Source of the DNA: Escherichia coli
GTDB lineage: Bacteria; Pseudomonadota; Gammaproteobacteria; Enterobacterales; Enterobacteriaceae
Assembly (NCBI RefSeq): GCF_024298765.1
Contig: NZ_CP101210.1
Length of the DNA stretch: 64,000 nt
Reading direction: 5' to 3' (one strand)
Of the stretch, positions 53,462-55,968 are shown in pieces (position 1 is the first letter of the stretch; every line of letters begins with the position of its first letter). Both the position numbers and the translations under genes were made by a program. The notes below the pieces were generated by a model, which worked only from the letters and a program-made list of their open reading frames with translations, ran no database searches and was not told the origin of the DNA.

Positions 53462-54016
53462 ATGACCCTACGCAAGATTCTGGCACTCACCTGCCTGCTG
53501 TTGCCGATGATGGCTTCCGCACATCAGTTCGAAACCGGTCAGCGAGTGCCGCCGATTGGCATCACCGATCGTGGCGAGTTGGTGCTTGATAAAGATCAGT
53601 TTAGCTACAAAACCTGGAACAGCGCGCAGTTAGTGGGAAAAGTGCGAGTACTGCAACATATTGCTGGTCGCACCTCTGCAAAAGAGAAAAACGCGACGCT
53701 GATTGAAGCGATTAAATCAGCGAAGTTACCGCACGATCGTTACCAGACCACCACCATTGTTAACACCGACGACGCGATTCCGGGTTCCGGCATGTTTGTG
53801 CGCAGCAGTCTGGAGAGTAATAAAAAGCTTTATCCCTGGTCGCAGTTTATTGTCGATAGCAATGGCGTCGCGCGCGGTGCCTGGCAGCTGGATGAAGAAA
53901 GTTCCGCTGTAGTGGTGCTGGATAAAGACGGTCGCGTGCAATGGGCCAAAGACGGGGCACTCACACAGGAAGAGGTGCAGCAAGTGATGGACCTGCTGCA
54001 AAAGTTGCTCAAATAA
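53462..54016 (+). CDS. ytfJ: Periplasmic protein YtfJ (DUF1434)
   Basis: 184 aa; signal peptide MTLRKILALTCLLLPMMASA. Confidence 0.87.
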   Translation: MTLRKILALTCLLLPMMASAHQFETGQRVPPIGITDRGELVLDKDQFSYKTWNSAQLVGKVRVLQHIAGRTSAKEKNATLIEAIKSAKLPHDRYQTTTIVNTDDAIPGSGMFVRSSLESNKKLYPWSQFIVDSNGVARGAWQLDEESSAVVVLDKDGRVQWAKDGALTQEEVQQVMDLLQKLLK

Positions 54017-54105
54017 TGGCAATAACATAAATTCTGCAAAAATAATTTTCCCCTATCGTTATCTATGGGATAGGGGAATTAAGCCTCTGAGTTCTTACGC
54101 CGAAC

Positions 54106-54861
54106 TCATACTGGTAACGCTAGTTGCTTTTTTTTAAACGCCTCAATGGTTGATTTATATTTCTCGCAAATCTCCTCTTCGGTAATATCACTATCTACGG
54201 CCAGATTCGCACTTACTATCGCATCCACTTGTTCGGCTAATTCCACTTGTTGGCAACCTGCATTAACCAGAAAATTATAAATAAGAGAGTAATCTTCATC
54301 CTCCAAAACAACAGAGGAACCATTACGAAAACGTTCATCCCCTCCATAGATTTTAAGCGCAAAGCCCAAAGATTCTATGACTATGGCAAAATTATCATCA
54401 ATTATTTTTTCGTAAATATACCATCCATCGCATTCTTTAATTCCACCTCCTGGTATTTGGAGGTCAAATTTACCCCGTTTTAATTTACTTACTATATCAT
54501 CCAATACAGCATAACCTAAAGACACGTCACCAAACGCCTGGCGAATATAACCTTTAATCCTTTCCGGTATGTCAGACTGTTTTTTCTGCAGAATATCCCA
54601 GGCATACAATCTTCTGTTTTGTTCTAACGGAAACTCGCGGTTTTTGAAATCCATGAATGAGTTATACTCATTTATTGTTATGGGAATTTCTTCGTATTCA
54701 AATCCACTGCCTCGCAATGTCATTATATATTCGGCACCGTTATCTTTAAGGCTGAAACTGATAAGAAACTTATCCATGGCGTTAACAGTTTCATTTTTTG
54801 ATGAAAGTACCTGATAACTATTTTTATCAATCTGAGTTGCGCAACGAAAGAACTCCCTCAA
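54106..54861 (-). CDS. ytfI: Uncharacterized AT-rich protein, possibly 5'-truncated or frameshifted
   Basis: 251-aa frame whose first start codon is TTG, with an in-frame stop at 54991-54993 upstream; convergent with ytfJ. Confidence 0.55.
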   Translation of the reverse strand: MREFFRCATQIDKNSYQVLSSKNETVNAMDKFLISFSLKDNGAEYIMTLRGSGFEYEEIPITINEYNSFMDFKNREFPLEQNRRLYAWDILQKKQSDIPERIKGYIRQAFGDVSLGYAVLDDIVSKLKRGKFDLQIPGGGIKECDGWYIYEKIIDDNFAIVIESLGFALKIYGGDERFRNGSSVVLEDEDYSLIYNFLVNAGCQQVELAEQVDAIVSANLAVDSDITEEEICEKYKSTIEAFKKKQLALPV

Positions 54862-55227
54862 AGTTAACAGGCTATCATAATTTGAAGTCCAATCTTTTTT
54901 ATTAAATGCATGCTGGATATTGTTAAAAAATTGTTTGAATGTGTTTTTGTATGCGATGATTTTACGAATAACTCCACCGCACCAATAAAATTATTGTGTC
55001 TGATCCTGGGTAACATATGGCTACCTTATTTTATTTGGTTATTTTATGTCGCCATTAAATATCTCATTATAGAAGTAAACTATCAAAAAACGCTCATTAT
55101 TAAAATATAACTTATTAGTAATTGAATTTTTGCACTTTAAATACAATCTCTTTTTATTTATAACTTTTTAGGTTGGGAGAAATCAGGATGGCAGAATCAG
55201 GAAATACACTGTTTCTGCCATCTGAAT

Positions 55228-55968
55228 TTAGTAAATAGACACTCTGAACCCCGGATTCAGGAACGACTCGCGCGGAGTGTAATCCAGCGGTTTACCCTGC
55301 CAGTCGTGAACGTGCGCTCCGGCAGCTGCGGCCACAGCATGTCCAGCGGCGGTGTCCCAAATATTCGTTGGTCCGAAGCGCGGGTACAGCTGCGCCTGCC
55401 CTTCCGCCACAAGGCAGAATTTCAGCGAAGAGCCGATGGACGTGGTCTGATGTTCGCCAAGCTGTTGCAGATACTCTTTCAGCTCCGCATCTGCATGGGA
55501 TCGGCTAATAACGACCAGTGGCGGGCGCGCATCACGGACCTGAATCTGCTTGCGCACGCCGCACTCTTCTTTCCACGCTTTGCCTTCTGCCGCGCTGTAC
55601 ATTACGTTCATTACCGGCGCATACACCACGCCTATAATCGGTTTGCCGTGGTCGATGAGCGCAATGTTAACGGTGAATTCGCCATTGCGTTTAATAAACT
55701 CTTTAGTACCATCCAGCGGGTCTACCAGCCAGTAACGCTGCCAGTGCTGACGGACTTCCCAACCGGGAGGATCTTCTTCAGAAAGGACCGGAATATCCGG
55801 TGTCAGCGTACGTAAACCGTCCATGATAACGGTGTGTGCGGCAATATCCGCTGCCGTTACCGGAGAATTGTCCGCTTTGCTGACGACGTCCATCGGTTTC
55901 GTCCCGTCGTAGACCTGCATAATGGCATCGCCTGCATTCCGTGCAAGCTGGCATACTTGATCTAACAT
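55228..55968 (-). CDS. cysQ: 3'(2'),5'-bisphosphate nucleotidase
   Basis: 246 aa; [22 protein letters not shown]..., DPLDGT inositol-monophosphatase-family motif. Confidence 0.93.

Follow-up and report, generated by a model that had tools for sequence, protein, structure and literature searches.

ytfI as a probable frameshifted pseudogene, arising by a one-base homopolymer contraction, in an Escherichia coli chromosome

The present study indicates that ytfI in one E. coli strain is very probably a dispensable orphan gene turned pseudogene by a frameshift, through the contraction of a homopolymer by one base. The gene lies in a window of 64,000 nt (the whole stretch of DNA that was analysed), which is a part of the E. 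coli chromosome with the order cycA-cpdB-cysQ-ytfI-ytfJ ... pyrBI-valS-leuX. It is a case of ordinary gene decay. ytfI is on the minus strand, flanked by cysQ (55228-55968) and by the convergent ytfJ (53462-54016). The features of the locus are as follows, in window coordinates.

54001-55227, no strand: variable ytfI segment of about 1.23 kb, 34.5% GC (window 50.7%), starting directly past the cysQ stop and reaching into the final five ytfJ codons
54106-55016, minus strand: probable frameshifted pseudogene of ytfI, 911 nt long, where the intact 303-aa allele has 912 nt
55016-54864, minus strand: 5' fragment, an ORF of 50 aa that starts at ATG and has 30 native YtfI codons and 20 out-of-frame codons, then TAA at 54866-54864
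54861-54106, minus strand: 3' fragment of 251 aa, YtfI codons 54-303, TTG start according to the ORF finder
54925-54930, no strand: lesion, A6 on the plus strand and T6 on the coding strand, A7/T7 in relatives, from alignments to relatives
54048-54078, no strand: hairpin between the convergent ytfI and ytfJ, 10-bp stem (TTCCCCTATC / GATAGGGGAA) and 11-nt loop
55017-55227, minus strand: cysQ-ytfI intergenic region, 27% GC, with a single sigma-70-like site at 55086-55058 and, just past the cysQ stop, a hairpin
55229-55209 and 55200-55180, minus strand: arms of the hairpin after the cysQ stop

Architecture of the split gene

An earlier note, made from the sequence alone, had proposed that ytfI is disrupted at its 5' end and that two reading frames are the parts of one gene split by a frameshift. 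When the nucleotide sequence was aligned with those of K-12 and the nearest relative, this was borne out, and a single 1-nt deletion was located in a homopolymer. The ORF at 54106-54861 does have TTG as its first start codon, and the in-frame TAA upstream of it (54993-54991) is present in the ORF list as described; the frame is open from 54990. The further statement that this frame contains no ATG is true between the upstream stop and the TTG only; further in, the 251 codons do include ATGs, such as that of the Met in ...NAMDKF.... An ATG-initiated ORF of 50 codons in a different frame exists as well, though its start had been placed at 55015, which is off by one base; the start codon is 55016-55014. 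The length of about 312 aa given for K-12 YtfI was correct and the product here is shorter. Sequence inspection found a Shine-Dalgarno-like AAGG 7 nt 5' of the ATG at 55016. The TTG at 54861 sits 2 nt past the premature TAA, and no Shine-Dalgarno-like sequence was seen 5' of it.

The lesion was defined by aligning 1,301 nt of the window with strain 104 and a K-12 derivative. The only difference from strain 104, the best-matching complete genome, over these 1,301 nt is one gap in a T-run. On the coding strand the run is T7 in K-12, strain 104, GPEC1035 and D10 and T6 in the window, so that AAT TTT TTT AAC at codons 30-31 has become AAT TTT TTA AC. When the missing base is put back, the intact 303-aa protein of the lineage is restored (312 aa in K-12). 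Codons 1-30 lie in one frame and codons 31-303 in the other, and together they make up the 303-aa protein. The juxtaposition of the two ORFs is not due to chance, because both pieces match the intact gene of strain 104 over 1,301 bases except for one gap. The premature stop is codon 51, and the window contains no uninterrupted ORF of about 303-312 codons. A doubt would have remained if K-12 carried the identical sequence as an intact gene; K-12 has T7 where the window has T6, and since it lacks the sequence of the window this doubt does not arise.

The indel lies inside a mononucleotide run and close relatives keep the intact allele, as is expected for homopolymer slippage. A contraction from T7 to T6 at codons 30-31, of the type made by replication slippage, is the probable event that turned ytfI into a pseudogene in this strain. 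Translation from the conserved ATG at 55016 would give 30 native residues and 20 wrong ones before stopping at the TAA at 54866-54864, and the 273 remaining codons would not be translated in useful amount. The frameshift is predicted to abolish function. Such a loss would presumably be tolerated, ytfI being a dispensable accessory gene absent from most E. coli, in a segment that is H-NS-bound according to the literature.

Assembly error, leaky translation or a shorter gene

With a high degree of confidence T6 can be taken as a genuine deletion inherited in a sublineage and not as an assembly error, a view that is favoured by sequence comparison rather than proven. The homopolymer setting of the lesion is the commonest site of assembly errors, and it could be argued that the T was lost in sequencing or assembly and that the strain truly has an intact 303-aa ytfI. 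The site is a 7-nt homopolymer, and T6 on the haplotype of the window is found in none of the 1,570 ytfI-bearing complete RefSeq genomes. In addition, the DH5alpha assembly (NZ_CP045741.1, labelled 'complete') has T6 together with two more homopolymer deletions in ytfI, which are typical long-read errors. These three single-base deletions within ytfI alone suggest that the record carries uncorrected long-read errors, and a record so clearly error-ridden in ytfI means that the T6 site does attract artefacts. Against this, the window has no indel relative to D10 apart from the one in ytfI (5 SNPs from about 1.9 to 64 kb, about 62 kb), despite 25 homopolymers of at least 7 nt and 51 of 6 nt in the window; the other runs of at least 7 nt agree with relatives. 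The identical T6 is present in a separately deposited draft, GCA_017785835.1 (contig DADUEH010000009.1), whose 19,895 compared nt show no difference from the window, although the draft may be the window's own isolate or source, so that the agreement is perhaps not independent. Several SNPs per 64 kb also separate the strain from the closest complete relatives, so a private real indel is not surprising. On balance an error is unlikely, while keeping some small weight.

The lineage itself is real and has been sampled repeatedly, because the distinctive ValS I805 allele of the window is found on at least 23 public contigs. Over window 39001-64000, about one gap and one mismatch separate the sequence from at least 15 complete genomes. 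Over the whole 64 kb the window differs from GPEC1035 by 7 SNPs and two 1-nt deletions, both homopolymeric. The idea that two private homopolymer deletions point to a poor assembly was dropped, as the deletion in pyrL is common to 16 complete genomes and is a lineage polymorphism. This second deletion lies in the U-tract of the pyrBI attenuator (20790-20796), which is T7 in the window and T8 in K-12 and GPEC1035. It shifts the frame of the pyrL leader near codon 38; a related assembly calls a 58-aa leader that overlaps the pyrB start. The pyrL T7 variant occurs in 16 of 5,422 complete genomes, all of the same lineage, and in D10 the gene is annotated as 'frameshifted'.

It could also be proposed that the genuine T6 allele is leaky, either through -1 slippage at two heptamers or through ribosomes that reinitiate at the TTG, 2 nt past the TAA. 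The heptamers are U UUU UUA at the lesion (AAT TTT TTA), which is a product of the deletion itself, and A AAA AAG ten codons further on (ATA AAA AAG). Both have the zero-frame phase, and either would return ribosomes to the YtfI frame ahead of the premature stop; the TAA at 54866-54864 and the TTG at 54861 are likewise close together. However, the fold predicted for the 85 nt past the lesion is no more stable than those of shuffled sequences (MFE -9 kcal/mol, z = +1.43), and inspection of the sequence found no Shine-Dalgarno-like stimulator 5' of the heptamers or of the TTG. The two-frame arrangement is not conserved, being present in 3 of about 1,570 ytfI-bearing genomes. Heptamers that lack a stimulator reach low levels in E. 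coli reporters, at most about 10 times a background of 0.055% (PMC4066793). Programmed -1 frameshifting was rejected, since the heptamers are present with neither a stimulatory structure nor conservation of the arrangement. Reinitiation at the TTG is possible in principle, though it would occur without a Shine-Dalgarno sequence. Taken together, leaky expression by these routes is extremely improbable. That the T6 allele is not null and still gives a trace of near-full-length YtfI, by 'adventitious correction' of an indel, is very unlikely. In a broader view, ytfI may be an old Escherichia-specific orphan that is selected in some lineages and repeatedly lost elsewhere.

Another way to read the locus is that the 251-codon ORF starting at TTG is the real gene, that the 5' end annotated in K-12 lies too far upstream and that nothing is disrupted. 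The exact 251-aa product of the window has indeed been deposited as a 'hypothetical protein' on 28 public contigs. However, every 251-aa contig that was examined has either a 5' lesion (T6, a +1 insertion or a transposase/beta-lactamase insertion) or a contig break or end. Among alleles of 70-95% identity the protein sequence of the N-terminal 54 codons is conserved (for example dN 0.055 against dS 0.57), and the AAGG motif precedes the ATG whereas the TTG has none. This constraint on the N-terminal codons supports the annotated ATG, and the frameshift therefore removes genuine coding sequence. The probability left to a shorter gene is close to nil.

Slippage at the same run might have been a means of switching the gene on and off, and a phase-variable contingency locus was considered and rejected. 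The T6 contraction occurs in 3 complete genomes among the approximately 1,570 that bear ytfI, all three on other haplotypes, and the rest are single-frame; T8 occurs in 0 of 5,426 genomes, and in the P0008 allele the run is interrupted (TTTCTTT).

An orphan gene in a variable AT-rich segment

YtfI has no match in Pfam or NCBIfam. Three weak matches were taken as chance, namely PADLOC Cas6b (a 40-residue match, E = 4e-4), a PHROGs family of unknown function (E = 0.002) and T4 gp32 in a PDB sequence search (E = 0.04). A word-indexed search gave 18 YtfI clusters, and those with a named source all belong to E. coli or Shigella. When 1.84 billion representatives were searched with a profile, the only matches were YtfI fragments and one marginal match to an S-layer protein repeat (E = 6e-4), which was judged compositional. 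Judged from these searches, YtfI is an orphan protein of Escherichia/Shigella with no recognisable family. An AlphaFold2 model built from a shallow alignment of 5 sequences had a mean pLDDT of 46. A possible lead to the role of the gene is HOCl tolerance, as over-expressed ytfI is reported to have scored in an ASKA-library screen (PMC8228696).

The dN/dS of intact ytfI alleles is 0.22-0.37. Substitution patterns thus place the intact alleles under purifying selection, including the N-terminal part that is lost in the window. Because of this selection ytfI must be more than junk, and losing it may come at some cost. The locus is shared by alleles of 70-95% identity, from genomes with up to 11% divergence in cysQ. 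The P0008 and P0010 alleles, for instance, have 77% and 70% protein identity, and their cysQ genes are 5% and 11% diverged from that of the window. The sharing of one site by alleles only 70-77% identical, in genomes with 5-11% cysQ divergence, suggests a long presence of ytfI at this locus with repeated losses, and not a recent insertion. The rate of evolution of ytfI is about two to three times that of cysQ. At the loci with the P0010 allele, a DDE transposase follows ytfI in the place of ytfJ.

The boundaries of the variable segment were set by eye from a comparison with E2348/69, because MAFFT misplaced the right end. The surroundings had been described as very AT-rich, and this holds: 54862-55227 has 28.7% GC against 50.7% for the whole window and falls in the lowest 0.7% of 366-bp windows. 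At a query coverage of at least 80%, ytfI is found in 1,604 of 5,418 complete genomes (about 30%). The remaining approximately 70% lack the segment, as does E2348/69, and in these genomes cysQ and ytfJ overlap tail to tail. In the window the last five codons of ytfJ (54001-54016) are inside the segment and the protein ends in ...QKLLK*; in strains without ytfI it ends in ...HKLINK*, with an 11-nt overlap with the cysQ stop (2063-2073 of locus L003). Terminal direct or inverted repeats that would mark the segment as a mobile element were looked for and none were found, and Rfam gave no match in 53800-55500.

The hairpin at 54048-54078 looks like a shared terminator of ytfI and ytfJ, judging from its sequence and position. 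It was missed by the terminator scan because its loop is longer than 8 nt. Promoter-like sites in 55017-55227 are no more numerous than in shuffled sequence, and the sigma-70-like site in this region is putative.

It appears from the public contigs that ytfI has been inactivated independently several times in E. coli. At least four causes lie behind the identical 251-aa call, in a list that comes from a search for the 251-aa product and so shows 5' lesions only and gives no rate. T6 is the cause in the window and in GCA_017785835.1, the only one among 24 inspected 251-aa contigs in which it was confirmed; the other contigs examined have a +1 insertion, a break or a transposase insertion. GCA_011813425.1 gained an extra T (+1, TTATTGTGTGCGG) independently, at codon 12 of ytfI (window about 54982) and on a different tamB haplotype, on a contig that ends 29 nt upstream of the ytfI ATG; 14 further contigs were placed in this group by their neighbouring genes. 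One assembly has a contig break at ytfI codon 6, and 3 more contigs were grouped with it by neighbouring genes. In GCA_015339985.1 (AAXEVF010000020.1, 2650-2920) ytfI is cut at about codon 24 (window 54944/54945) by an insertion that encodes a 420-aa DDE transposase and a 291-aa beta-lactamase and has the look of an ISEcp1-blaCTX-M unit; here a resistance gene has entered ytfI on the chromosome. Apart from these, a nonsense codon at residue 62 of ytfI has been reported in JM83 (PMC11148124, supplement).

The lesion in the window has a use in annotation, as the locus is better labelled as a frameshifted ytfI pseudogene than as a 251-aa TTG-start 'hypothetical protein', an artefactual product which 28 public contigs already carry. 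For ytfI in general it is one further instance in the record of a dispensable gene, with no known function and reported to be H-NS-bound, that E. coli repeatedly loses or breaks, and it opens no new biological question.

Two other features of the window were observed. yjgL (16138-17778, minus strand) encodes 546 aa here and is annotated as 'frameshifted' in the near-identical GPEC1035 and D10; 16100-16650 is the most AT-rich part of the window, with a GC fraction of about 0.24. Like ytfI, yjgL may be an AT-rich gene of unknown function in the course of decay. Divergence of the window from D10 sets in upstream of about 1,900, beside a tRNA-Leu gene. Positions 1-1900 are probably the edge of an integrated island, because the matching stretch of GPEC1035 carries a tyrosine integrase.

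Comparison with other ytfI alleles and H-NS-bound segments

The ytfI of the window belongs with the YtfI group by its position between cysQ and ytfJ, its convergence with ytfJ and its full-length similarity to K-12 YtfI, and because of the premature stop at codon 51 it would be a pseudogene member of that group. K-12 ytfI (b4215, WP_000937655.1, 312 aa, function unknown) has the same cysQ-ytfJ locus, the same ATG and the same context of the T-run. It is about 96% identical to the window in nucleotides over the aligned 1.3 kb, and the proteins are 94% identical after the frame is restored. The two differ in that the T6 of the window, against the T7 of K-12, produces a frameshift. They differ also at the 3' end, where the allele of the window's lineage stops 9 codons before that of K-12 and is 303 aa long when intact; the lineage has TGA where K-12 has TTA, which is why K-12 YtfI reaches 312 aa. 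The closest known form is the intact 303-aa WP_000937651.1 of strain 104, GPEC1035, D10, APEC O2-211 and others, with T7, an intact ORF and the same ATG, whose gene is identical to the window in 1,301 bases except for the one gap.

The contraction from T7 to T6 at the same site is also seen in DH5alpha CP045741.1 and in the pig isolates HCP5S3_I2 and LCP30S3_I5. In these three genomes the gene is already labelled 'frameshifted' by the NCBI annotation pipeline. They are on other haplotypes (K-12-like, and one 9 SNPs from the window), DH5alpha having its further homopolymer deletions. Since the haplotypes are different from that of the window, the T6 events (or errors) are independent of it.

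ytfI is given as an example of a strain-specific H-NS-bound segment by Higashi et al. 2016 (PMC4720273, S10 Fig). The binding was demonstrated in K-12 and not in the strain of the window (PMC4720273). The segment of the window resembles the H-NS-bound AT-rich segments of E. coli in being likewise AT-rich, variably present and placed between core genes. It seems to differ from the strain-specific ones in its history, as the allele data suggest a gene that is old at its locus and has been lost again and again, rather than one that was inserted recently.
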